Shown: piece by piece, positions 9,402 to 22,750 of the stretch
How positions within the stretch are numbered: the first letter of the stretch is position 1
Layout of the letters: each line of letters opens with the position of its first letter
Assembly: GCF_000284455.1 (NCBI RefSeq)
Contig: NC_017039.1
Location: 90,001-122,000, forward strand
Source of the DNA: Synechocystis sp. PCC 6803 substr. PCC-P
GTDB lineage: Bacteria; Cyanobacteriota; Cyanobacteriia; Cyanobacteriales; Microcystaceae
Direction of reading: 5' to 3'
DNA: 32,000 nucleotides
Made by a program: the position numbers and the translations under genes
The notes under the pieces: model-generated
What the model was told of the DNA's origin: nothing
The model's input: only the letters and a program-made list of their open reading frames with translations
Databases searched by the model: none

Positions 9402-10793
9402 ATGGTTAGCCTCACCCCCAATCCGAGTTATAGCGTCAGCCTACTGTTGGAACTCCCCAACCACGCCGGAACTTTGGCCAGCGTTACCCAGGCGATCGCC
9501 GATGCGGGGGGCAGTTTTGGGCAAATTTCCCTGATTGAGAGTAACTTAAAACTCACCCGGCGGGAAATTGCGGTGGATGCTTCCAGCAGTGAGCACGCCG
9601 AAAAAATTATTGGGGCAGTGAAAGCTCTGGATAATGTCAAATTGCTGAAGGTGTCCGATCGCACCTTTGATTTACACCGTCAGGGCAAAATTAGCGTGGT
9701 TAGTCGCATTCCCCTCACCTCCCAATCGGATTTGGCCATGGCCTATACCCCAGGGGTGGGGCGCATCTGTCGGGCGATCGCCGAAGATCCGGAAAAGGTT
9801 TATTCCCTGACCATTAAAAGCAATACGGTGGCGGTGGTGACCGATGGCAGTGCGGTGTTGGGGTTGGGTAACCTGGGGCCGGAAGCGGCTTTACCAGTGA
9901 TGGAAGGCAAGGCCATGTTATTCAAGGAATTTGCCCAACTGGACGCTTTTCCCATCTGTTTGGATACCCAGGATACGGAGGAAATTATTCGCACCGTCAA
10001 GGCGATCGCCCCGGTGTTTGGCGGCGTAAATTTGGAAGACATTGCCGCTCCCCGGTGTTTTGAAATTGAAGCCCGGCTGAAAAAAGAATTAAATATTCCT
10101 GTATTTCACGATGATCAGCACGGCACCGCCATTGTTACCCTGGCCGCTTTGTTAAATGCCCTCAAATTTGTTGGTAAAGCCATGGCCGCTGTCCGCATTG
10201 TCATCAACGGCGCTGGGGCTGCTGGGTTGGCGATCGCCGAATTGCTCAAGGAATCCGGAGCCACCGATATTTGGATTTGCGACTCCAAGGGCATTGTGGG
10301 CAAACATCGCACCGATTTAAACAGCAAAAAACAGAGCTTTGCGGTGGATGCGGAAGGGACTTTAGCCGATGCTATGGCTGGAGCTGATGTGTTTTTAGGG
10401 GTGAGTGCGCCGGGGGTAGTGACCAAGGAAATGGTGCAATCCATGGCCAAGGACCCGATTGTGTTTGCCATGGCCAACCCTATCCCCGAAATTCAGCCGG
10501 AATTAATCCAAGAGGATGCGGCGGTTATTGCCACGGGGCGCAGTGATTACCCCAACCAAATTAACAATGTGCTTGCCTTTCCGGGGGTTTTCCGGGGAGC
10601 CATTGACTGTAGAGCTAGCATTATTACCACCACCATGTGCATCGAAGCGGCCAAGGCGATCGCCTCTTTGGTGCACAGCAACACCCTAGATAGTGAGCAT
10701 ATTATTCCTTCGGTTTTTGACAATCGGGTCGCCACTACCGTAGCCAGTGCAGTGCAGTTGGCCGCCCGCAATGAAGGGGTGGCCGGTCAATAG
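9402..10793 (+). CDS. NAD(P)-dependent malic enzyme with N-terminal ACT-like domain
   Basis: It carries the motifs AMAYTPGVGRIC, VVTDGSAVLGLGNLG, FGGVNLEDIAAPRCF, VFHDDQHGTAIV and the dinucleotide fold INGAGAAGLAI. Confidence 0.9.
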   Translation: MVSLTPNPSYSVSLLLELPNHAGTLASVTQAIADAGGSFGQISLIESNLKLTRREIAVDASSSEHAEKIIGAVKALDNVKLLKVSDRTFDLHRQGKISVVSRIPLTSQSDLAMAYTPGVGRICRAIAEDPEKVYSLTIKSNTVAVVTDGSAVLGLGNLGPEAALPVMEGKAMLFKEFAQLDAFPICLDTQDTEEIIRTVKAIAPVFGGVNLEDIAAPRCFEIEARLKKELNIPVFHDDQHGTAIVTLAALLNALKFVGKAMAAVRIVINGAGAAGLAIAELLKESGATDIWICDSKGIVGKHRTDLNSKKQSFAVDAEGTLADAMAGADVFLGVSAPGVVTKEMVQSMAKDPIVFAMANPIPEIQPELIQEDAAVIATGRSDYPNQINNVLAFPGVFRGAIDCRASIITTTMCIEAAKAIASLVHSNTLDSEHIIPSVFDNRVATTVASAVQLAARNEGVAGQ

Positions 10794-11771
10794 TTAATCG
10801 GGAATTGTTAAACCTTTACTGGTCAACCATTCCTGATTGTAAAGACGGGATTGGTAACGGGCTCCTCCGTCACAAAGTACGGTAACAATGGTATGCCCCG
10901 GCCCAAGTTTTTTGGCCAATTGGTAAGCCGCTCCCACATTAATGCCCACGGAACCGCCCATAAATAGGCCATCCCGCCGCAGAAGTTGGTACACCACCCG
11001 CAACGCTTCTGGATCGTCAATTTGCACCGCATCGTCAATGGGCACATTTTCCATGTTGGCGGTGATGCGACTGTTGCCAATGCCTTCGGTGATGGAGTTG
11101 CCGCTGGGGTTAATCTCCCCAGTTTTGATGAAGCTATACAGCCCACTACCCATGGGGTCCGCCACCACGCATTGCACGGCCTCAGACTGTTCTTTAAGAT
11201 ACAGGGCTACCCCTGCATAGGTTCCTCCGGTGCCAGTGGCTGCCACCCAAGCATCTACTTTGCCGTCCGTTTGTTGCCAAATTTCGGGGCCGGTGGTGTG
11301 GTAGTGGGCATCACGGTTGGCCAAATTATCAAATTGATTGGCCCAAATGGCGTTATCTAATTCTGCGGCAATGCGTCCGGAGAGTTTGACGTAATTGTTG
11401 GGATCCCGGTAGGGCACGGCGGGCACGGTCCTGACTTCTGCCCCCAGGGTGCGGAGCAAATCAATTTTTTCCTGGGATTGGGTGTCGGGAATGACAATTA
11501 AGCATTTATAACCCTTGGCGTTGCAAATGTGGGCGAGACCAATGCCCGTATTACCCGCTGTGCCTTCCACCACAGTGCCACCGGGTTTGAGCTTCCCTTC
11601 CTTTTCGGCGGTTTCGATGATGCCCAGGGCGGCCCGGTCTTTGACAGAACCACCAGGGTTCATAAATTCTGCTTTGCCTAAAATTTCACAGCCGGTTTCG
11701 TCACTGAAACTGTTAAGGCGAATCAAGGGGGTGTGGCCAATGGAGTCCACAAAGCCGTGCTTAATATCCAT
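10794..11771 (-). CDS. PLP-dependent cysteine synthase / CBS-family enzyme
   Basis: The PLP-lysine motif is NPGGSVKDRAA, with a glycine loop ATGTGGTYAG and SITEGIG. The start is taken at ATG 11771 (MDIKHGF...). The track start at TTG 11795 is the alternative. Its stop abuts the malic enzyme stop (TAG 10791-10793, then TTA 10794-10796). Confidence 0.85.
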   Translation of the reverse strand: MDIKHGFVDSIGHTPLIRLNSFSDETGCEILGKAEFMNPGGSVKDRAALGIIETAEKEGKLKPGGTVVEGTAGNTGIGLAHICNAKGYKCLIVIPDTQSQEKIDLLRTLGAEVRTVPAVPYRDPNNYVKLSGRIAAELDNAIWANQFDNLANRDAHYHTTGPEIWQQTDGKVDAWVAATGTGGTYAGVALYLKEQSEAVQCVVADPMGSGLYSFIKTGEINPSGNSITEGIGNSRITANMENVPIDDAVQIDDPEALRVVYQLLRRDGLFMGGSVGINVGAAYQLAKKLGPGHTIVTVLCDGGARYQSRLYNQEWLTSKGLTIPD

Positions 11772-11883: not shown

Positions 11884-12831
11884 TCAATTATTCATAATTT
11901 GGATGCCGTGGCCGATGGTGTGGGTTAGCCAAAAATCCACGTCGGGGTCGTTTAATTTTTCTTTGGCGATCGCCAGGACCTGTTCCGCTTCTGCTTGCTC
12001 CCGGCAAAGGGTAAACACGCTGGGGCCGGAGCCGGACATCATGGTGCCCAATCCCCCCGCTGACTGTAGGACCTGACGTAACTGGGCTACAGGCTGATGA
12101 GCCGGGAGCACAACTTTTTCTAAATCGTTGTGGATATGGCTGGCGATTTGCCCTGGGTTGCGGTGCTGAATGCCCTGGAGTAGGGGCCCTGCATGGATGG
12201 TTTTCCGCCGGGCTCGCTGGGACTGGTCATCGTTTAGGTAATTCTTGCCAAACTTTTGACGATAGGTTTGGTAAGCCCAGGGGGTAGAAACTTCTATGGA
12301 ACGATGTTTGGCCAATACCACCCAGAAGCAATTGCCGTCCGGTAAGGGGTCGAGGATTTCCCCCCGTCCCGTGGCGATCGCCGTGCCACCGCCAATGCAA
12401 AAGGGAATGTCGGAACCCAGTTGGGCCGCTAACTGTTCTAATTCCGGCCTGGTTAAGCCTAAATTCCAGAGCAGGTCTAAACCGACTAACACCGCCGCTG
12501 CATCGGCCGAGCCCCCCGCTAAGCCCGCCGCCATGGGAATATGCTTGGTCAAGGTGATATCTACGCCGCCGTAATTATCATGGGCTTGGGGAAAATTGTT
12601 AATCATCAACTGGGCCGCTCGGTAGGCCAAATTGGTGGCATCGTTGGCCAAGGGACTATCCCCACAACTGAGCCGGATGTCATCGGTGCCGTTGGCCCGC
12701 ACGGTAATTTTATCCCCCAGGGCAATGCTCTGCAACACCATTACCAATTCGTGGAAACCGTCGGGGCGATCGCCAAGAATTTCGAGGAAAAGATTAATTT
12801 TGGCCGGGGCATGGAGGGTGTAGGAATGCAT
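11884..12831 (-). CDS. ispE: 4-diphosphocytidyl-2-C-methyl-D-erythritol kinase
   Basis: The N-terminus [11 protein letters not shown] carries the catalytic Lys, and the GHMP-kinase loop reads [16 protein letters not shown]. Confidence 0.9.
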
Positions 12832-12921
12832 TAAGTTGGGGGTGAAAGAGGGGCAATAAATCAGTTAAATCTAACCACTCAAGTTATCGCCTAACATTTT
12901 ACGGCGATTGGCGAATCCTAA
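12768..12921. repeat. Left copy of the ksgA/ispE-junction direct repeat (154 bp)
   Basis: Positions 12768-12831 (the real ispE 5' end) match 17408-17471 at 62 of 64 nt. Positions 12832-12921 align to the ksgA 3' end (17472-17653) with about 80% identity over the first ~50 nt, a 1-nt indel, a deletion of about 92 nt, and then 37 of 39 identity (GTTATCGCCTAACATTTTACGGCGATTGGCGAATCCTAA). Confidence 0.9.
12832..12921 (-). pseudogene. Decayed 3'-terminal fragment of ksgA/rsmA
   Basis: Read on the minus strand it gives ...GFANRRKML...[10 protein letters not shown]..., compared with the intact ksgA C-terminus GFANRRKMLRNNLKG...EQWLELTNLLPTFLPPT*. It is frameshifted and internally deleted. It still ends in TAATG, overlapping the ispE start. 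Confidence 0.8.
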
Positions 12922-12929
12922 TTTGATCT

Positions 12930-15110
12930 TTATTTTTTGTCCTTAATAATTATATTCAAGATCTCTGGAAGAGTAAAATAAATATAGTAAAGAATTGGCG
13001 TGCCAACAACATCTATTGTCCCAAAATTACGACATAAATCAGAGTTGGGTATTTTAAGTTGAGGAACTTGAATCGGAGTGGAATCAATATGAAAAGTTAT
13101 ACACCATTTAACTTTAATTTTTAATTTTCTATGTTCATCTCTATCTTCTTCTTTTTCTCCCAAATCATAAAATAAATTGTCGTAAAAATAGTCTATATTT
13201 ATTTTATTAAATTCTTTACCAATAATACTTTGTGAATATGGAAAATAAGATTCCATAAGATTTGGAATATCCACTTGAATTTCTTTGAAAAAGATTTCTA
13301 CTTGTTCAAGAATATAAGTCCTGGCATTTTTTCTTTGCGCCTCATTTTGGAAAGTAATCAAAGGAATATAATTGCTTTTTAAGTCTTCATTTTCGAATAA
13401 AATAATTTCTTTTTTTTTAACTGAAGCATGAGCATTATTTTTTCGAAATTGGTAATAATTCTTCTCACGAATTGGGCTATCAAAGTCTGATGCCTCAGTA
13501 ATACCCAAATAAATATTTTGTATTGCAACAAAATTTGCCTTAAATATTTGAATACCTCTAATGTGAAATCTGTCCTCCATAATTCCCAGAAAATTACTCT
13601 CAGATTCGAGTTTGTCAACATAATAAAAAGGAATAAAAAAGTAATTTCCGATAGTGGCTTGAGGAAAAACTTGTTGCAATGCTAATTCATAACCAAGTTG
13701 TTTTTCCAAAGCTACTCTGTACCCTTTATCAGTTTCTTCTAAAGATTTATTTTCATAATCTTCATATTTTTTTAAAGAAATATTCTTAAAATCCACAATT
13801 GCAAAGTAACTTGAATCTTCATTTTTAGTAACAGTAACTAGGTCTGGCTGTGGATATCGACGCAACTGATTGGGGTAATCTGATCTAGTCACTTTATATT
13901 TCACGTCAGGAAAGATTCTCGCCTTTAAATCCCATTCAATACAGAATAATTCTCGCCAATAGAGTGGCTTGTAATTATTGGGATGGTCAACTTCAGACTG
14001 TTTTTTTTGATATAGCCACTGATTACTAGATTTATTTTTCCACCAACCAACTCTATTTTGTTCGCTTTCTGGTCTATGATGTTTAGAATTTCTAATTCTA
14101 TTATTTTTATAGCCTACTATCGGAATATCAGTATCTGCAAAGCCAATTTTATTAAAATCATTCTGAATAGGGTTAAAGTTCTTCTTAAAGAAGTAAGTTT
14201 GACACATATCTTCCCAAACATAATCAAAACCTTGTTCTCCTTGTATTCCCCAAAAATCGCCATCATCTAAGTTTGGGTTTAATCCCCCATACAAAAAAAT
14301 CTCGATAGCTTCATATAGCCCCCAATAATCAGCATCTTTATAATGCGTATTTCTATCTATATTATCAAGAGCCTCTTTGCAAATTGAAAGAGTTTCTTCA
14401 AAAGTATCTTGGTCAAAAAGAGAATGATTAATAGTTAAATAGTGATCTCTAAATCTTTGAGATAAAAATTGAATATCCTGACTTCTATCATAAATATGAT
14501 CAAGTACATCTTCCTGCAATTGTTGAATAATTTCATCGAGAATAAAACAATAAAGATCAACTATATCGGTGCTTTCATGACTTATCATTGAACGCGGTAA
14601 GTTCATAACATCGATATAAATTGCTCCATTATTTAAATAAATAGCTCTATCTAAATATTTATAAATTTTAGAATAGTCTATTTCTTCACTGCGTCGAGCT
14701 TTTTTTTCGATAGAATTGAGCGCCAAATCATCATAAGCCTCTAATATTCGTTCAATCATCGAAAGTTTACTGTATAAAATACACTCGCTTGCCTCTTTAT
14801 AGTCTAAACTAATACCACCCGTGCTTAAATTGACCTGGTCTTGGTTTTTCTTGTTTTTAGCATCTTTTCTTGTGACTCTTGAATTATTCTCATTATCACG
14901 ATCAAACTTCCTTAGTGTTCGATACATCAAAAAGAAAGAATCACGGACTTTATTGAATTTGTCGGTATCTTCAGAAGTAGCTGCATTTTGATATTTATCA
15001 ATAAAATTGTCAAAACCTTTTGGTAAATAAAAAGCATATCCATCAGGTTCAGATTTAATACCTACAAAGTCTGAGTTTGTTTTTAGATTAAGTTGCGAAA
15101 AGTTCCACAT
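12930..15110 (-). CDS. McrC/LlaJI-R2-like PD-(D/E)xK nuclease subunit, unusually long (726 aa)
   Basis: It lies 40 nt downstream of the McrB-like gene. The nuclease core elements are the helix GFDYVWE300DM, the strand QPD423LVTV and the motif AIVD440FK442N, followed by ALEKQLGYELAL. This matches the McrC pattern E...PD...(D/E)xK...Q..Y. About 120 aa of basic insert lie between E300 and D423, and about 250 aa after the core have no motif I recognise. Confidence 0.6.
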   Translation of the reverse strand: MWNFSQLNLKTNSDFVGIKSEPDGYAFYLPKGFDNFIDKYQNAATSEDTDKFNKVRDSFFLMYRTLRKFDRDNENNSRVTRKDAKNKKNQDQVNLSTGGISLDYKEASECILYSKLSMIERILEAYDDLALNSIEKKARRSEEIDYSKIYKYLDRAIYLNNGAIYIDVMNLPRSMISHESTDIVDLYCFILDEIIQQLQEDVLDHIYDRSQDIQFLSQRFRDHYLTINHSLFDQDTFEETLSICKEALDNIDRNTHYKDADYWGLYEAIEIFLYGGLNPNLDDGDFWGIQGEQGFDYVWEDMCQTYFFKKNFNPIQNDFNKIGFADTDIPIVGYKNNRIRNSKHHRPESEQNRVGWWKNKSSNQWLYQKKQSEVDHPNNYKPLYWRELFCIEWDLKARIFPDVKYKVTRSDYPNQLRRYPQPDLVTVTKNEDSSYFAIVDFKNISLKKYEDYENKSLEETDKGYRVALEKQLGYELALQQVFPQATIGNYFFIPFYYVDKLESESNFLGIMEDRFHIRGIQIFKANFVAIQNIYLGITEASDFDSPIREKNYYQFRKNNAHASVKKKEIILFENEDLKSNYIPLITFQNEAQRKNARTYILEQVEIFFKEIQVDIPNLMESYFPYSQSIIGKEFNKINIDYFYDNLFYDLGEKEEDRDEHRKLKIKVKWCITFHIDSTPIQVPQLKIPNSDLCRNFGTIDVVGTPILYYIYFTLPEILNIIIKDKK

Positions 15111-15150
15111 AATATGTAAATAAAACTATTCAATGAAAAGAAAACTTAGA

Positions 15151-16539
15151 TTATTTTGATTGATAATTTATGAGATTCATTACAAAAGCTTCATGATGTG
15201 TAATAAAGTCTCCAAAAGTTACTAATTTTTTATCATTTTTGTTAAATCCTAAAAGTTCTCGAAGTGGATTTTTGTCTCGGTTAAAAACACTATCCCAAAC
15301 AAAAAACATCAATTTATTTTTTATTTGATCTTCTGTAACTATTGCTGTATTTATGAAATGATAGCCTATTTGCATATCTTCTATTCTGCCACTTCTCACA
15401 GAATTATGATTATCTTTAATGAAGTTGTTAAATTTTTCTACTAAATCTGTCCACTTTAAATTAACATTTCCATAATCTATTAAAATAACATTATTTATTT
15501 CTTGATCATTATCTTGTTTCCAATCTACGTATTCCCACTCCCAACGTCTTTTAAAGGCATTATCCATAAAATATATAGAATTATCAGAAGTATTCATTGT
15601 TCCAAAAATGGAAAGATTGTAAGGAATACGAATTGAACTACCTACTGCTGTATTAACTTTTACTTTAATTTTAATTTCCTCAAATACAGTAAATTTTTCT
15701 AGCACGTTAGACGAACCTTTATTTTGATATTTGTATGTAGGATTACCATCATCTATTCCCGTTTGTTGAAAGCCTATTAGTTCAACCATTTTTCTAAATT
15801 CTAAATCGGAAATATTAATACCATAAGCTGACCAACCATCTCGACCTCGATCTAAAAGTTGAAAAACTGTCCCAAAAATTGCAGAAGAATTACCTCGATT
15901 AATTTCATCAATTACTAAGGCAACGTTTTGAGCTTGTACACCTTCCTTCTGAGCAATGATAATATTTTTATACGCTTGTGCTAGTGCCTTCAAAAAATGT
16001 CCTTCATAAAATTGATAATAAACACTCTTATCTTTATCATCATTCATAGTCATTGGCATTAATTTTCCCATAAAATCGCCATAGGTGTATTCGGGATGAA
16101 AAACAGTCTTAATTAAATTTTCAGGATGAATATTTTTATCAATACCTAAAACTTGTTTAACAATTCCACCATCATCATCATTAGAAATCTTATGGCTTTT
16201 GCCAGTACCAGGACAACCGAAAAATATTTTTTGAATTGGACTATTCATAACTTTGTAATGACCTTTGCTTTTATCATTGCCTTGATGCTGCAAGCGATCA
16301 AGTAAATCTAATAACTGTTCATCAGTAAGTTTATCGCGGACTATTTGCCCGTAAGTCTTGCGAATATAGTTGTACTGCTCTGATTGCCTCCATCTTAAAC
16401 GTTCAAACTCTTTATTGGTTTTAGCTATAAAATCTCTCCGCTTAAGAGATTCAAAATCTTCCATAGTTTCGTATGGTTGTTGCTTTTGTAGATCCGTTTT
16501 GAGCCACTTACTTAATATAATATTACTCACATTCCGCAC
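15151..16539 (-). CDS. McrB-family AAA+ GTPase subunit (AAA_5/McrB-like)
   Basis: Walker A is FFGCPGTGKSH (16195-16218), followed by the McrB signature FHPEYTYGDFMG and Walker B LVIDEINRGN. GTMNTSD is the NxxD GTP-specificity motif (NTAD in McrB). FKRRW is the Arg finger region, and IGYHF is also present. The start is ambiguous (GTG 16539, GTG 16530, ATG 16464). The ~100-aa N-terminal region is short, helical and lacks any reader domain I recognise. Confidence 0.8.
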   Translation of the reverse strand: MRNVSNIILSKWLKTDLQKQQPYETMEDFESLKRRDFIAKTNKEFERLRWRQSEQYNYIRKTYGQIVRDKLTDEQLLDLLDRLQHQGNDKSKGHYKVMNSPIQKIFFGCPGTGKSHKISNDDDGGIVKQVLGIDKNIHPENLIKTVFHPEYTYGDFMGKLMPMTMNDDKDKSVYYQFYEGHFLKALAQAYKNIIIAQKEGVQAQNVALVIDEINRGNSSAIFGTVFQLLDRGRDGWSAYGINISDLEFRKMVELIGFQQTGIDDGNPTYKYQNKGSSNVLEKFTVFEEIKIKVKVNTAVGSSIRIPYNLSIFGTMNTSDNSIYFMDNAFKRRWEWEYVDWKQDNDQEINNVILIDYGNVNLKWTDLVEKFNNFIKDNHNSVRSGRIEDMQIGYHFINTAIVTEDQIKNKLMFFVWDSVFNRDKNPLRELLGFNKNDKKLVTFGDFITHHEAFVMNLINYQSK

Positions 16540-16744
16540 ACGCTATATGGAGCGTAGCAGTATAAATAAATGCGCAGTAAACACAGTATAAGCAAAAACT
16601 ATTGCGCTATCAATAGCAGCAATCTGCGAAATGTCAGTATTAGTGAATAATTATTCATATTATATCTAAAAAGGTTATCCCACACAACAAAAAATGGGTA
16701 GTTATTAACCACCCTTCAAATCTATAATCAACCTACAGCGGTCA

Positions 16745-17208
16745 TGCTTTCCATCTGGTATACCAAAGTCATTGTAAAACAGTGGTTACAGGCATTTTAT
16801 ATGTGCCTAACTAATAGGGTATCCGCTGTATCCCTCTTCCGTCAAACCAAGAGAGATATTTTAGGATTAATTATTGAAAGTGCCTAATCGTAAGACTTTC
16901 AGAACTTGGCACTTGGTTTGCCCCCCTCTGGCAGTGCCTACAATTGATATGGACTGATAGCGCCTTTGTCGGAAAAGATTTTATCTAGTGGGTGGAGCAG
17001 ACCTTGGGCTGGAACTTTGGAAGTCGTCAGCAAAAAAGACGGGCAGAAGGGCTTCGAGATTTTACCGCGACGTTGGGTCGTTGAACGTACCTTTTCTTGG
17101 TTTGGTCACTATCGTCGTTTAAGTAAAGACTATGAATATTTACCTAACACTAGTGAGACAATGCTTTATTTCGCTATGATCAGTCTCATGCTCCGGAGGC
17201 TTGCCTAA
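16745..17208 (+). pseudogene. Decayed C-terminal remnant of an IS4/IS5-superfamily DDE transposase
   Basis: The intact tail reads [64 protein letters not shown], which fits the classic [16 protein letters not shown] family signature. Upstream pieces lie in other frames and include an in-frame stop ([28 protein letters not shown]). The N-terminal two-thirds is missing. The left limit is approximate. Confidence 0.7.
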
Positions 17209-17381
17209 AACTTTTCAAACACTTTCTAAAGCATTTTTAACAGAATCGTGGAAAATATCTTTGGCTGGCATAGGTTGCTAGAATTTAATTCTAATCTATT
17301 CGAAAAGCTGGATTAAAGATCCCATAAGTGTAAGAACTACAAACATAAATCTAAAACTTTCTAGCAAAACTTGATCCGCCG

Positions 17382-17471
17382 TCAGTGATACCCATAATTT
17401 GCTTGGTGATCGCCAAGAATTTCGAGGAAAAGATTAATTTTGTCTGGGGCATGGAGGGTGTAGGAATGCAT
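17382..17471 (-). pseudogene. Truncated duplicate of the ispE 5' end (29-codon [24 protein letters not shown]...)
   Basis: Its ATG (17471-17469) overlaps the ksgA stop as TAATG. The first 21 codons match real ispE except for A-to-D in APAKINL. The frame then runs into island sequence and stops at TGA 17384-17382. Confidence 0.8.
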
Positions 17472-17653
17472 TAGGTTGGGGGTAAAAAAGTCGGCAACAA
17501 ATTAGTTAACTCTAACCATTGTTCTAGGCTTAAGTCTTCCGCCCGGGCAGTGCTCGGCAAAGCTAACTGCTCCAATAAAGTAGTCAACTGTTCCGGGGCA
17601 ATTAATCCCTTGAGGTTATTGCGTAACATTTTACGGCGATTGGCGAATCCTAA
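17408..17653. repeat. Right copy of the ksgA/ispE-junction direct repeat (246 bp)
   Basis: See the left copy. This copy comprises the ispE' fragment (17408-17471) plus the intact last ~182 nt of ksgA. Confidence 0.9.
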
Positions 17654-18325
17654 GCAGAGAAGTTGATCCAGTAAGCGACGATCTCCTGGTAATTGCTCGA
17701 CGGGGTAAGGGGTTAAACGAATGACAGCGGAATCCACTTTAGGGGGTGGCGTAAAAGCTTTGGGGGGTACATCCACAATCCAATCCACCCTGGCTAGGTA
17801 TTGCATCCGTACCGATAGGGCACCGTAGGCTTTGGTGCTGGGTTGGGCCGTTAACCGTTCGGCAATTTCTTTTTGCACCAATAAAACAATGGTTTCAAAG
17901 CCTGGTACCCTCGGTTTTTGGATGGTACCCAACAGTAGTTCCAAAATCGGACTGGTGATGTTATAGGGAATATTAGCGACCACTTTATTGAGGGGAGAAA
18001 ATTGAGGAAAATCCTGTAATAAAGCGTTTAAATCTAGTATTAATACGTCCCCTTCGAGGAGCAGAAAATTTTCCCGTTGCCCTAACTTTTTGCGTAATTT
18101 AAGGCATAAATCCCGGTCTAGCTCCACCGCCACCACCGGATTCCCCGTAGCCAATAGCTGTTTAGTTAAAACCCCCATGCCAGGGCCAATTTCCAGCAGG
18201 CGATCTCGTAGAGATCCGCTTTGCGGTGCGCCGGACTGAATATCTGCGGCCGCCACAATGGCCTGTAAAGTTGGTTCATGGTTTAGCCAATGTTGGCCAA
18301 AGCGTTTGCGGGGTCGAAAAGCCAT
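17471..18325 (-). CDS. rsmA: 16S rRNA (adenine1518/1519-N6)-dimethyltransferase
   Basis: It begins FGQHWL, has the SAM-binding motif LEIGPGMGVLT and the catalytic motif NIPYNITSPI. Confidence 0.9.
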   Translation of the reverse strand: MAFRPRKRFGQHWLNHEPTLQAIVAAADIQSGAPQSGSLRDRLLEIGPGMGVLTKQLLATGNPVVAVELDRDLCLKLRKKLGQRENFLLLEGDVLILDLNALLQDFPQFSPLNKVVANIPYNITSPILELLLGTIQKPRVPGFETIVLLVQKEIAERLTAQPSTKAYGALSVRMQYLARVDWIVDVPPKAFTPPPKVDSAVIRLTPYPVEQLPGDRRLLDQLLCLGFANRRKMLRNNLKGLIAPEQLTTLLEQLALPSTARAEDLSLEQWLELTNLLPTFLPPT

Positions 18326-20391: not shown

Positions 20392-20724
20392 ATGGCGGGA
20401 ATATTATCCCCATGTTCAGAATCTACCCTGACGGATCGCTATCAGACCACAGTGCCTGACCCGGTTCGCAAAGCCTTGGGGTTGAATAAGCGAGATAAAA
20501 TTTGCTACACCATTGAAGCCGATGGCAGAGTGTGGATTGCCAGGGCTGAACAGGCAGAAAATGATCCGGTGCTGGGGAAATTTTTGGATTTTTTGGCACA
20601 GGATATGGATAAAAATCCTCAGCATATACAAGCGGTCAGTTCTGAGTTGGTTGATCGTCTGCAATCGCTAGTCTCCGATGTTGATGTAGATCTAGATGCG
20701 CCATTGCTGGACGAGGATGAATAG
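20392..20724 (+). CDS. prlF: PrlF/SohA-family antitoxin (AbrB/SpoVT-like fold)
   Basis: The N-terminus ESTLTDRYQTTVPDPVRKALGLNKRDKICYTIEADGRVWIAR matches the PrlF swapped-hairpin pattern. It has an acidic C-terminal tail (DVDVDLDAPLLDEDE) and is followed 2 nt later by a YhaV-like gene. Confidence 0.8.
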   Translation: MAGILSPCSESTLTDRYQTTVPDPVRKALGLNKRDKICYTIEADGRVWIARAEQAENDPVLGKFLDFLAQDMDKNPQHIQAVSSELVDRLQSLVSDVDVDLDAPLLDEDE

Positions 20725-20726
20725 AT

Positions 20727-21224
20727 TTGCCAATAGATAAGCCTTTATTGATTAATGGGTGGAAGATATTTGCCCATCCCCTATTTCTTGAGCAGGTTGA
20801 AGAACTTGTGGCCCAGGTTGAATATCTGCGTCAAAAGAATCCCAAAGATTATAAAAAGAAAAATGCTACCAAGCGTCTAGCGGCGATCGCCAAATTAGCA
20901 TTTGAGGTTATTCCCCAAGATCCCACCCGCCATGAATATCGACAGGGAAATACCCTTGGAAATGATTATAAACACTGGTTTAGGGCTAAATTTTTTCAGC
21001 AGTATCGTTTATTTTTTCGCTACCACCAAGAAAGTAAAATTATTCTCCTCGCTTGGGTTAATGACGAAGACTCAAAACGTGCCTATGAAAGTAACACAGA
21101 TGCCTATAAAGTCTTTAGAAAAATGCTCGAAAATGGCCATCCTCCTGATGACTGGAATGATTTACTTACCGAGGCTAAACGTGTTGGCGATCGTTTACAA
21201 AAAATTGCCGAAGTTGAGCCTTAA
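20727..21224 (+). CDS. yhaV: YhaV-family toxin (RelE-superfamily ribonuclease)
   Basis: INGWKIFAHPLFLEQVEELVAQVEYLRQKNPKDYKKKNATKRLAAI...YRLFFRYHQESKIILLAWVNDEDSKRAYESNTDAYKVFRKMLENGHPPDDW closely follows my recollection of E. coli YhaV. The start is TTG. Confidence 0.8.
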   Translation: MPIDKPLLINGWKIFAHPLFLEQVEELVAQVEYLRQKNPKDYKKKNATKRLAAIAKLAFEVIPQDPTRHEYRQGNTLGNDYKHWFRAKFFQQYRLFFRYHQESKIILLAWVNDEDSKRAYESNTDAYKVFRKMLENGHPPDDWNDLLTEAKRVGDRLQKIAEVEP

Positions 21225-21243
21225 TTTTCCCGTCTTTCACACT

Positions 21244-21268
21244 GGCGATCGCCATTTGGAATCAACAA
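21244..21268. repeat. 25-bp direct repeat, copy 2 (downstream of yhaV)
   Basis: See copy 1. It translates as GDRHLE, compared with RDRRLE* at the end of the upstream gene, so it is a pseudo-duplicate of that gene's 3' end. Confidence 0.75.
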
Positions 21269-22750
21269 AAATGTTTTAACAATGTTAATTTTTCTCTCAA
21301 TCTCTCAAGATTGGGGTATTTAGAATCTGATTCCTTCGATATTGAGAACCCAGGTAGACTTCTCAAATATACTCTTTAGTATGTACTTGTGATAATATTG
21401 GGATAGCCTTATTATTATGCATTTCAGTGTACTCATGAAGTTAGAGCAAAATATTTGAGGCAATTCAAACATTTCGTAAAAGTCTAAAATAATGTGATAA
21501 CTATATAATGGATGATAGCTTTAGTATGAAAAACCACACAATCTCCCAGAACCCACAAACTACTTTTATCTACTTGCACATATAATGATGACTGACTATC
21601 CTACCAATTTATTTGAATTATCAACAGGCTTTCTAGACCACAGAATAATAAAAGAATTTTATGTTTATACAGTTTGTATTGAGAGAGGTAGATGGAGCGA
21701 CATTGAGTATGATGTGATACATGATCTACATATAGTAGAATTCAATTCTTTTACAGCTTTGATAAAGATAACAAATCGTGACAAAGTTGAACCAATAATC
21801 ATAGTGCCAAGACAGTACTGGAACCTCATAAGACCTTTCAATAACTTAAAAGAAAAGTGTGAAAGATTTTACACTTTTGATGATCTGAAAGAATCTATTT
21901 ACACAAAATGCTTTGTTAGCGTAGATAGTATAGATAAGATATTTCGTAGTATTCTTACCGCGCAAAAAATAACTGAAGAACAACATAATCAGTTAGAAAA
22001 ATACATAAACACGATTGAGGATTTTTGCAGAATGTTCATGCCAAAATTTGAGTCTATCAATGATTCATTAATGAGTGATGAAGAGTATTCAGAGAAAGTT
22101 TATAAAGAATTTTCATCACCCAGGTATGACTCTAATGAGCAGAATGAGCAGAGGTACAAATACAACTATAAATACGGAAAGGTAGGTGAAATGTATATAA
22201 TGAATAGCATGGCAAGTTTATTTCACCAAATGCATTCAATCGAAGAAAGCATAAAATTTTTGTATGAAAAGAAAAAAAGTGATGAATATATCAAGGAGCT
22301 CTGTGAAAACAAACTAATGGTGACCATAGAAAGTGAATTAAATGTATGCCGAGAACGCCTTAGAGAGTTAAAAAAGAAAAATATTTATATTTCACCAAAA
22401 GTATTCGATGGTCTATATGAAAAATACTTAATGTCAGACTATCAAGAAGAAGACGCTCGATTATATGCTGATTATAGAGAATCTAATCAAGGGCAAGAAT
22501 ATTTTGCCCCTAATGATGACTGCTACCTCCCACTTGTTGATGATGGTCAATACTCTTAGTTTGAATCATAATTAACACCAAATGATAGCTTGATTAAACT
22601 TTAAACCGAGAGTGCCAAAAAAGCTAACTAAGAACTGTCTGAAATCCTTTATTTTTTCATTGACATAACTTGGATTTAGACAAAATTTAAATCTCTATTT
22701 CAGAAAAACATAAACCACTTTAAAAATAGATAATTTAACTTGATGATCAG
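21269..22750. mobile_element. Second AT-rich insertion (about 1.5 kb) with a single orphan ORF
   Basis: Composition switches to strongly AT-rich right after repeat copy 2 and returns to native near 22770. It contains no HIP1 site. The boundaries are approximate. Confidence 0.55.
21585..22559 (+). CDS. Orphan hypothetical protein (324 aa), beta-rich N-terminal part and Glu/Lys/Tyr-rich helical C-terminal part
   Basis: It is the only long ORF in the AT-rich segment, which is notable because AT-rich DNA is stop-rich. I recognise no motif. It is preceded by a 25-codon ORF (21508-21585) whose TAA overlaps the ATG as TAATG. Confidence 0.5.
   Translation: MMTDYPTNLFELSTGFLDHRIIKEFYVYTVCIERGRWSDIEYDVIHDLHIVEFNSFTALIKITNRDKVEPIIIVPRQYWNLIRPFNNLKEKCERFYTFDDLKESIYTKCFVSVDSIDKIFRSILTAQKITEEQHNQLEKYINTIEDFCRMFMPKFESINDSLMSDEEYSEKVYKEFSSPRYDSNEQNEQRYKYNYKYGKVGEMYIMNSMASLFHQMHSIEESIKFLYEKKKSDEYIKELCENKLMVTIESELNVCRERLRELKKKNIYISPKVFDGLYEKYLMSDYQEEDARLYADYRESNQGQEYFAPNDDCYLPLVDDGQYS

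Follow-up and report, generated by a model that had tools for sequence, protein, structure and literature searches.

How can foreign DNA come to separate two genes that overlap in related strains and leave both of them complete? This question is raised by a locus on the chromosome of Synechocystis sp. PCC 6803, which lies within the 32-kb stretch of DNA analyzed here (the window; coordinates refer to it unless stated otherwise) and comprises the genes sll0708-sll0711, whose four products were identified by exact protein matches. All four genes are carried by the minus strand. The first, ksgA/rsmA (sll0708; 17471..18325), encodes a protein named dimethyladenosine transferase (Pfam RrnaAD, E=1e-52), and the last, ispE (sll0711; 11884..12831), named from its protein match, encodes a protein with the Pfam domains GHMP_kinases_N and GHMP_kinases_C; both genes are intact. 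Between them lies an AT-rich island of ~4.5 kb (12922-17404), whose overall GC content is ~30% (mostly 25-33%, with ~40% at its right end) vs. ~50% in the flanks, and each edge of the island carries a copy of the ksgA/ispE junction. The original prediction made for this DNA was that the island had integrated in a site-specific or homology-driven manner together with its own copy of the junction, and that the two repeats represent attL and attR. Our analysis points to a different answer: the repeats are probably relics of an older insertion of a xisH-xisI gene pair, whose place was later taken by other cargo, and the ksgA|ispE boundary probably constitutes a slot for variable cargo bounded by HIP1 palindromes.

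The duplicated junction and its occupants

Global alignment defined a right (ksgA-side) repeat copy of 249 nt (17405..17653, minus strand) and a left (ispE-side) copy of 157 nt (12765..12921, minus strand). The right copy, delimited by the repeat search and alignments, is composed of the 3' end of the resident ksgA (its last ~180 nt), the TAATG overlap and a dead ispE 5' stub of 67 nt (17471..17405), which terminates in a mutated HIP1 site, GGCGATCACC (17414..17405). The left copy contains a decayed ksgA 3' pseudogene fragment with a 91-nt deletion and a 1-nt frameshift, TAATG and 67 nt from the start of the live ispE, within which the corresponding HIP1 site is intact (12774..12765). The difference in length of 92 nt is made up of the 91-nt deletion and the 1-nt indel, and substitutions are scattered besides. 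The ispE-derived parts are identical at 63 of 66 positions and the alignable ksgA-derived parts at 76 of 88 (86%). A repeat search recovered the same similarity as two segments, 12765-12850/17405-17490 (93%) and 12868-12921/17600-17653 (83%), and the direct repeat is far above chance expectation.

These results bear out the claim that direct repeats bracket the AT-rich island; the lengths given earlier (154 and 246 nt) differ only in that the final 3 nt of the HIP1 site were omitted, and the earlier count of 62 of 64 for the ispE part holds within its limits. The ksgA part is indeed diverged and carries the 1-nt indel and the deletion (91 nt), but the identity of about 80% assigned to it was too low. 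BLAST of the right copy revealed no third copy in the window, and in 20-kb loci of 10 related strains the segment matches the ksgA/ispE junction only; the repeat is a junction duplication and not a member of a dispersed family, as had been proposed. No inverted repeat pairing the island ends was found in the repeat search. A target-site duplication of a transposon or insertion sequence (IS) was considered and rejected: the copies measure 157 and 249 nt vs. the 2-15 bp of such duplications, no terminal inverted repeats were found, and the only IS piece, of the IS5 family, is internal and truncated.

A scan of ksgA loci by KsgA, with one genome per species, returned 71 loci, in which ispE directly follows ksgA in most close and many distant cyanobacteria. 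Empty sites, with the two genes overlapping at TAATG or abutting, are present in the strains PCC 6714, PCC 7338, PCC 7339 and a LEGE strain (L077), in the related metagenome-assembled genome (MAG) L001, and in a second assembly with the KsgA protein of PCC 6714. The original prediction of an ancestral ksgA-TAATG-ispE arrangement, which would have failed had the genes never been adjacent in relatives, therefore appears to be right.

The same two repeats, the same joints and the same 91-nt deletion were found in S. salina LEGE 00031 (L002) and strain FACHB-383 (L078), in which the ispE stub ends, and the ksgA fragment starts, at the same points as in PCC 6803. The arrangement of these loci is ksgA-ispE'-leader-xisH-xisI-'ksgA-ispE, and the sole cargo is a cassette of ~0.9 kb, comprising a 135-nt leader and complete, overlapping genes for XisH (138 aa; PF08814) and XisI (111 aa; PF08869). 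Because the same repeats frame other cargo in these relatives, they are not the island's own att sites. In the fdxN element of Anabaena, whose xisH and xisI products are accessory factors of the XisF serine recombinase, the same overlapping Pfam XisH and XisI genes occur; in contrast, the Synechocystis cassette stands alone as an insert of two genes, an arrangement that recurs in many other cyanobacterial genomes and plasmids, and no xisF-type recombinase gene was found in the 10 kb to each side of the S. salina and FACHB-383 sites. A scan of metagenomes for the source of the cassette, using a 20-mer from the xisH leader, gave one unrelated chance match (L089).

A third cargo occupies the site in strain CACIAM 05 (L074): 5.5 kb of unrelated DNA encoding a DUF1232 protein, a DUF697 GTPase, an FHA protein and a Ser/Thr kinase, accompanied by a decayed xisH/xisI remnant and by a ksgA fragment with the same deletion. 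The live ksgA of this strain ends in sequence of the "fragment" type (10800-10864 of its locus; cc-cctctttt, frameshifted) and reads into the cargo, which gives a KsgA of 287 aa, and its ksgA is followed by no ispE stub. An identical 287-aa KsgA is encoded by a metagenome contig (L121) that carries a further CACIAM-05-type allele, but the contig itself ends before ispE. The 81-nt spacer 5' of the left copy in CACIAM 05 was tried as further decayed ksgA and dismissed, its local alignment being no better than those of shuffled sequences.

Remains of the xisH-xisI cassette are also preserved in PCC 6803. The dead ispE stub is followed by a 133-nt leader (17272..17404, minus strand), recognized by comparison with S. 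salina, and by the first 15 codons of xisH (MPAKDIFHDSVKNAL; 17227..17271, minus strand), which share 93% identity with residues 1-15 of the S. salina XisH (tblastn); together, leader and remnant are ~97% identical to the S. salina sequence. The remnant of xisH, of which residues 1-15 only are kept in the window, is cut by the right end of an IS5-family element (16904..17228, plus strand). Of this element the last ~325 nt persist, including an open reading frame (ORF) for the transposase C-terminus (16966-17208; Pfam DDE_Tnp_1_2 and DDE_Tnp_1), and the 5' two thirds are absent. The fragment shares 81-83% identity with IS5 copies of Synechocystis plasmids, and both of its break points were set by alignment to the copy in pSYSM. 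At the opposite edge of the island, a 10-nt trailer, AAAGATCAAA (12922..12931, minus strand), matches the sequence directly following the xisI stop codon in S. salina; it overlaps the stop codon of sll0710 and forms the downstream joint between the new cargo and the end of the older cassette. Because PCC 6803 retains the leader, the xisH stub and the trailer, the order of events is clear: the duplication with xisH-xisI came first, to be followed by the IS and the AT-rich module. The AT-rich module appears to have taken the place of most of xisH-xisI and not to have created the repeats.

HIP1 joints, allele exchange and asymmetric decay

The two outer limits of the duplication coincide with HIP1 palindromes. 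The ispE stubs of S. salina and FACHB-383 have GGCGATCGCC as their exact end, immediately before the leader; it is this site that is mutated to GGCGATCACC in PCC 6803. The ksgA fragment of CACIAM 05 extends ~33 nt further 5' than that of PCC 6803 and starts exactly at GGCGATCGCC, which is the HIP1 site of the resident ksgA, perfect in S. salina and PCC 6714; the allele of PCC 6803 and S. salina has lost ~115 nt at the start of the fragment. Since the stub end and the CACIAM 05 fragment start both fall on GGCGATCGCC, the original duplicated unit would have been a HIP1-to-HIP1 interval of ~280 nt spanning the gene overlap. HIP1 sites (GCGATCGC) number 34 in the window, i.e., ~1 per kb, and at this density the probability of two joints falling on HIP1 by chance is ~1e-4. 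In PCC 7338 and PCC 7339 (L075 and L076, at ~9770-9800 of their loci), the same ksgA HIP1 site is split by a 24-nt in-frame insertion (alignment columns 126-149), and ksgA encodes 292 aa vs. 284 aa.

HIP1 has been tied to excision and plasmid recombination (Robinson et al., 1997; Akiyama et al., 1998; as cited in PMC5861425, refs 15 and 19) and, in a preprint, to a Chi-like stimulatory effect on recombination during transformation (Kamoku and Nielsen, 2024, bioRxiv 10.1101/2024.09.10.611283). The present case resembles these HIP1-associated rearrangements in that both original novel joints lie on GGCGATCGCC and that the ksgA HIP1 site is split in PCC 7338/7339; unlike the published cases, which concern excision, plasmid recombination and transformation efficiency, HIP1 sites here form the ends of a duplication flanking a gene pair.

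The history of the occupied allele was traced among nine Synechocystis-group sequences. Five flanking gene segments group PCC 6803 with CACIAM 05 (clade A) and S. salina with FACHB-383, the LEGE strain, PCC 7338 and PCC 7339 (clade B); PCC 6714 stands apart, MAG L001 is the outgroup, and occupied sites are present in both clades. The flanking genes of PCC 6803 and CACIAM 05 share 94-98% identity, and sliding windows with direct counts gave 92-100% for most of the flanks. The last 100-150 nt of ksgA, by the same counts, are only 69-84% identical between these two strains, and 97-99% identical between PCC 6803 and the empty-site strains of clade B. Likewise, the PCC 6803 leader shares 97-98% identity with that of S. 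salina, and its left-copy ksgA fragment shares 99% with S. salina vs. 76% with CACIAM 05. Because the PCC 6803 allele is, unlike its flanks, nearer to S. salina than to the sister strain CACIAM 05, a clade-B-like lineage is the most plausible partner in an exchange of this allele, with ksgA and ispE as the genes in which homologous recombination took place. At the occupied site, two old types of allele coexist.

Three causes seem to contribute to the asymmetric decay of the copies, namely the conservation of ispE, gene conversion and the age of the ksgA pseudogene. Over 66 nt at its 5' end, ispE does not differ between PCC 6803, PCC 6714, PCC 7338 and PCC 7339; because this stretch hardly varies, a stub from any of these lineages would be nearly identical to the live gene. 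The PCC 6803 stub has three private G/C-to-A changes. There are also signs suggesting gene conversion between the ispE copies of one genome: a G>C change is present in both copies of S. salina and FACHB-383, a ctc>ctg change in both copies of S. salina only, and at one t/c site the bases of the two copies are interchanged between these sister strains. The ksgA fragment shows four changes common to both allele types; it keeps the outgroup state at 3 sites relative to the resident copies of clades A and B, at 2 of them also relative to PCC 6714, and it branches basal to all resident Synechocystis ksgA copies. It is thus likely to be an old pseudogene that branched off before the sampled strains diverged, or to derive from an outside lineage. 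The 3' end of the live ksgA, for its part, evolves fast and is mosaic. Conversion of the "ttagga" at the repeat start of the PCC 6803 ksgA from the fragment was considered and rejected, this state being common to most resident copies.

The original prediction had offered a different donor lineage, or gene conversion maintaining the ispE part, as explanations for the unequal divergence. The phylogenetic test it had proposed for the left ksgA fragment yielded the basal position described above, which lends the donor-lineage idea partial support. The gene-conversion idea is likewise supported in part, by the concerted ispE changes within genomes, but much of the near-identity is plain conservation.

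Origin of the duplication

The events at this locus may be reconstructed as follows. In an ancestor or a related lineage, xisH-xisI with a leader of ~130 nt would have been joined to the junction at a pair of HIP1 palindromes (GGCGATCGCC), which lie in ksgA (~215 nt ahead of its stop codon) and in ispE (+55..+64), and the interval between them would have been duplicated. The structure that resulted is the one observed: the complete ksgA is followed by a dead ispE stub, and the complete ispE is preceded by a dead ksgA tail. Only a junction-duplicating insertion would survive here, because ksgA and ispE overlap and both must stay intact. HIP1 may have served as the microhomology for both joints, in an illegitimate joining event within a polyploid cell. 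The dead ksgA tail then decayed by the 91-nt deletion, the frameshift and the loss of ~115 nt at its start, and the ispE stub would have been kept close to the live copy by low variation among strains together with gene conversion. Sequence similarity suggests that homologous recombination in the flanking genes carried the occupied allele from one lineage to another. Later, in the lineage of PCC 6803, an IS5 element inserted into codon 15 of xisH, and a foreign AT-rich module, sll0709 with sll0710, replaced the remaining xisH-xisI; the downstream joint of this replacement is located in an A-rich run right at the sll0710 stop. The order of these two steps can be read from the layers, and the way in which they took place is our suggestion.

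Several points weigh against this reconstruction. The mechanism of the first duplication is deduced from its end points, and it is conjecture that the IS5 fragment had a part in the arrival of sll0709 and sll0710. The coincidence with HIP1 was noticed post hoc, and the second HIP1 joint is kept in the CACIAM 05 allele only, having been deleted in PCC 6803 and S. salina. The sample consists of only nine sequences; the site is occupied in two clades and empty in three lineages, so that gain and loss both fit, and a precise loss through recombination between the repeats would be scarless. The case for gene conversion comes from 3-4 sites in 66 nt and the basal placement of the ksgA fragment from 2-3 sites in 88 nt.

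The behavior of xisH-xisI pairs elsewhere bears on these issues. The XisH family is very large and conserved (>2,700 matches), and the pairs frequently form bare two-gene inserts within replication or defence operons of cyanobacterial plasmids. Insert sites were observed (loci L090-L097 and L108-L119) at dnaN|dnaX in three Nostoc plasmids, hsdS|hsdR, hsdM|hsdS, drmA|methyltransferase and DUF1156|HEPN, and pairs also occur among toxin-antitoxin genes. This placement is the behavior of small selfish two-gene modules. When 500-600 nt on either side of ~22 independent cassettes were compared, long flanking direct repeats were found only at the Synechocystis locus and in a plasmid of Leptolyngbya sp. 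NIES-3755. In both, the xisI stop is followed at a distance of 14-16 nt by the downstream copy, and the repeats begin or end at GCGATCG. In the latter (plasmid1, locus L094), xisH-xisI separates hsdS from hsdR, and a 99-nt copy of the hsdS 3' end borders it on each side (1357-1455 and 2274-2372 of the locus). The two copies start at GCGATCG, end at TAA and show 12 differences, of which ~9 are synonymous by reading of the alignment; the xisI stop lies 16 nt ahead of the downstream copy. No empty site for this hsdS|xisH-xisI case was found in the plasmid collection. Shorter repeats, of 39 and 27 nt, flank two further cassettes, and one of these repeats ends beside a HIP1 site; ~17 of the 22 have no flanking repeat. 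Among random control segments, which were chromosomal (most of the test cassettes being plasmid-borne), 3 of 598 reached a score of 30. A seemingly strong third case, with a 64-nt repeat (L114; 1355-1418 and 2239-2302 of the locus), was discarded as a dispersed repeat: repeats of this type, 65-100 nt long with HIP1 at the edge, are present in at least 4 copies within 5.5 kb of a Pseudanabaena galeata plasmid (L120), where they adjoin xisH-xisI and toxin-antitoxin-like genes. The wider repeat pattern is suggestive but thin.

How do other explanations of the repeats fare? The attL/attR reading draws on the position of direct repeats exactly at the island edges, the sharp drop in GC content inside, and the diverged ksgA part of the left copy. 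We judge it already refuted and give it next to no credence, since the same repeats, joints and 91-nt deletion surround xisH-xisI alone in S. salina and FACHB-383. In addition, the "island" of PCC 6803 includes the xisH-xisI leader and the 15-codon xisH stub, and its AT-rich part begins only past the IS5 fragment. A Pfam scan of the larger ORFs of 12922-17404 revealed no tyrosine or serine recombinase (integrase) gene, the sole mobility gene being the C-terminal fragment of the IS5-family DDE transposase; ARAGORN found no tRNA or tmRNA gene in the window; and homologues of the module elsewhere stand alone, with no such junction-type repeats at their flanks. The locus does resemble prophages and islands that integrate at gene 3' ends by means of an attP with a replacement gene end, in that gene-end repeats flank the insert and the targets stay intact. 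It differs from them in having neither an integrase nor a tRNA/tmRNA target, in repeats that are older than the cargo, and in a duplicated segment that is far longer than a typical att core and bounded by HIP1. A Campbell-type event is unlikely, but deserves considerably more weight: a circle carrying xisH-xisI and a foreign ksgA/ispE junction would have entered by a single crossover in the ispE 5' stretch, in which case the left ksgA fragment would be donor DNA and the ispE parts would be alike through the crossover there. It would suit a fragment that is about equidistant (80-88%) from the resident Synechocystis copies and the outgroup and shares outgroup states, and the ispE 5' end, as the longest perfect identity among lineages, would be the best RecA substrate; the 12 differences, ~9 synonymous, between the Leptolyngbya hsdS copies also fit two alleles. 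What it leaves unexplained are both HIP1 end points, unless the circle itself arose by HIP1 joining, and it needs an earlier occupied site or an unexplained circle. Moreover, the same divergence can be produced by duplication in situ if the fragment then decayed neutrally and the live ksgA 3' end evolved or had its allele replaced.

It is also conceivable, though highly unlikely in our view, that xisH-xisI was itself the mobile agent, with XisH cutting at or near HIP1/CGATCG and insertion between the staggered cuts duplicating the interval. XisH has been classed as a PD-(D/E)XK nuclease fold protein (PMC3424549), the pairs sit as isolated inserts inside operons (dnaN|dnaX, hsdS|hsdR, hsdM|hsdS and drmA|methyltransferase), and two independent cassettes have long repeats at GCGATCG and two have short ones, against the 3 of 598 controls. 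Set against this are the ~17 of 22 cassettes that lack a flanking repeat, the loss of the L114 case to a dispersed repeat, and the leader, for which no conservation was found 5' of other xisH-xisI cassettes, so that the supposed element has no defined 5' end. For the Crocosphaera XisH P0266, which was used to look for an identical XisH in several contexts, all 10 places among the matches listed represent a single locus; no Leptolyngbya empty site was found, and the controls were chromosomal vs. mostly plasmid-borne cassettes. The general form of the idea, that stand-alone xisH-xisI propagates itself, directed to HIP1/CGATCG and duplicating the interval between two such sites, so that the PCC 6803 repeats are a fossil long target-site duplication, is likewise a long shot. 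An older xisH-xisI insertion with later exchange of its cargo remains the probable explanation of the repeats.

As regards this slot, the closest parallel is provided by the variable islets between core genes that are exchanged by natural transformation and homologous recombination in the flanks. At one site the cargo differs (none, xisH-xisI, the kinase/FHA/GTPase set or the restriction module), and the PCC 6803 allele is nearer to the other clade than to its sister. The difference is that the slot sits here where two genes overlap by 4 nt, and that the duplicated junction forming its frame (~250-280 nt) keeps both genes whole.

The present cargo and the significance of the locus

The cargo of PCC 6803 consists of two genes on the minus strand. 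The gene sll0709 (15151..16539), named "llaI.2" or, by NCBI, "McrB family protein", encodes a putative McrB-like AAA+ protein (PADLOC REase_II, E=2.5e-34), whose matches to Pfam AAA_5 and NCBIfam McrB are weak, both lying under the curated cut-offs. The second gene, sll0710 (12930..15110), annotated as hypothetical, encodes a homologue of LlaJI-family (R2/McrC-like) restriction endonucleases. It was assigned to this family through homologues, because it has no direct match in Pfam, NCBIfam or PADLOC: a Nostoc "LlaJI family restriction endonuclease" shares 50% identity with its residues 1-535, PF09563 is carried by some homologues, and a C-terminal extension of ~190 aa is additional. The two genes appear to form a McrBC/LlaJI-like restriction-type module that was acquired recently. 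Their 90%-identity protein clusters contain only entries of PCC 6803 and unclassified Synechocystis, and by these clusters the genes occur in no other sequenced Synechocystis. The closest sll0710 homologues share 67-73% identity and include those of Nostocales (Anabaena and Okeanomitos); the nearest beyond the cluster (73%) is part of a bare two-gene module in Anabaena, and in Anabaena sp. 4-3 both genes stand alone between housekeeping genes.

The module resembles the GTP-dependent LlaJI and McrBC restriction systems in the succession of a putative McrB-like AAA+ gene and a LlaJI-R2-like endonuclease gene, and it differs in the sll0710 extension and in having no adjacent counterpart of the M1 and M2 methyltransferases of LlaJI. 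No methyltransferase ORF was found in 12922-17404 or adjoining the Anabaena homologue, and the layout would therefore be McrBC-like (type IV) if the module is active. A non-coding stretch of ~360 nt lies 5' of sll0709 (16540..16903, minus strand), in which consensus matches only indicate a terminator-like hairpin (16714..16696) and a promoter-like site (16613..16585). Within it, 105 nt (16726-16830) share 82% identity with an intergenic stretch among toxin-antitoxin genes of the PCC 6714 plasmid pSYLB, which hints that the module may have passed through a plasmid context. At the other end of the module, a further promoter-like site, again a consensus match only (TTTACT-17-TATAAT; 12977-12949, minus strand; 10 of 12 matches), is located inside the 3' end of sll0710, ~118 nt 5' of the ispE start, and could drive ispE, presumably an essential gene of the MEP pathway, now that ksgA is apart.

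The window holds a second AT-rich variable stretch (20392-22600; 31-35% GC), which encodes a PrlF/YhaV-type toxin-antitoxin pair (20392-21224) and an AT-rich ORF of 324 aa (21585-22559) and is bounded by a conserved gene for a 368-aa protein and a Wzy_C-type gene; the matching interval contains other genes in CACIAM 05, PCC 7338, FACHB-383 and one metagenome contig.

PCC 6803 is the main cyanobacterial model, and this locus houses sll0710, which has already been chosen as a "neutral" integration site for engineering (PMC8272380). Its odd composition is accounted for by layered insertion of an older xisH-xisI pair, an IS5 remnant and a recent restriction-type module, and the locus should not be taken as typical of the species. 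We regard it as a variable cargo slot and not as a new kind of element. It also provides a natural example of an insertion into a 4-nt gene overlap that spared both genes through duplication of their junction, with cargo swapped within a persistent frame and a dead gene stub kept similar to the live copy. With both original joints on HIP1, the locus offers a concrete, testable case for the long-open role of this palindrome. Should stand-alone xisH-xisI prove to be self-propagating, HIP1 and a protein with the XisH nuclease fold would share a role in the mobility of cyanobacterial gene cassettes.

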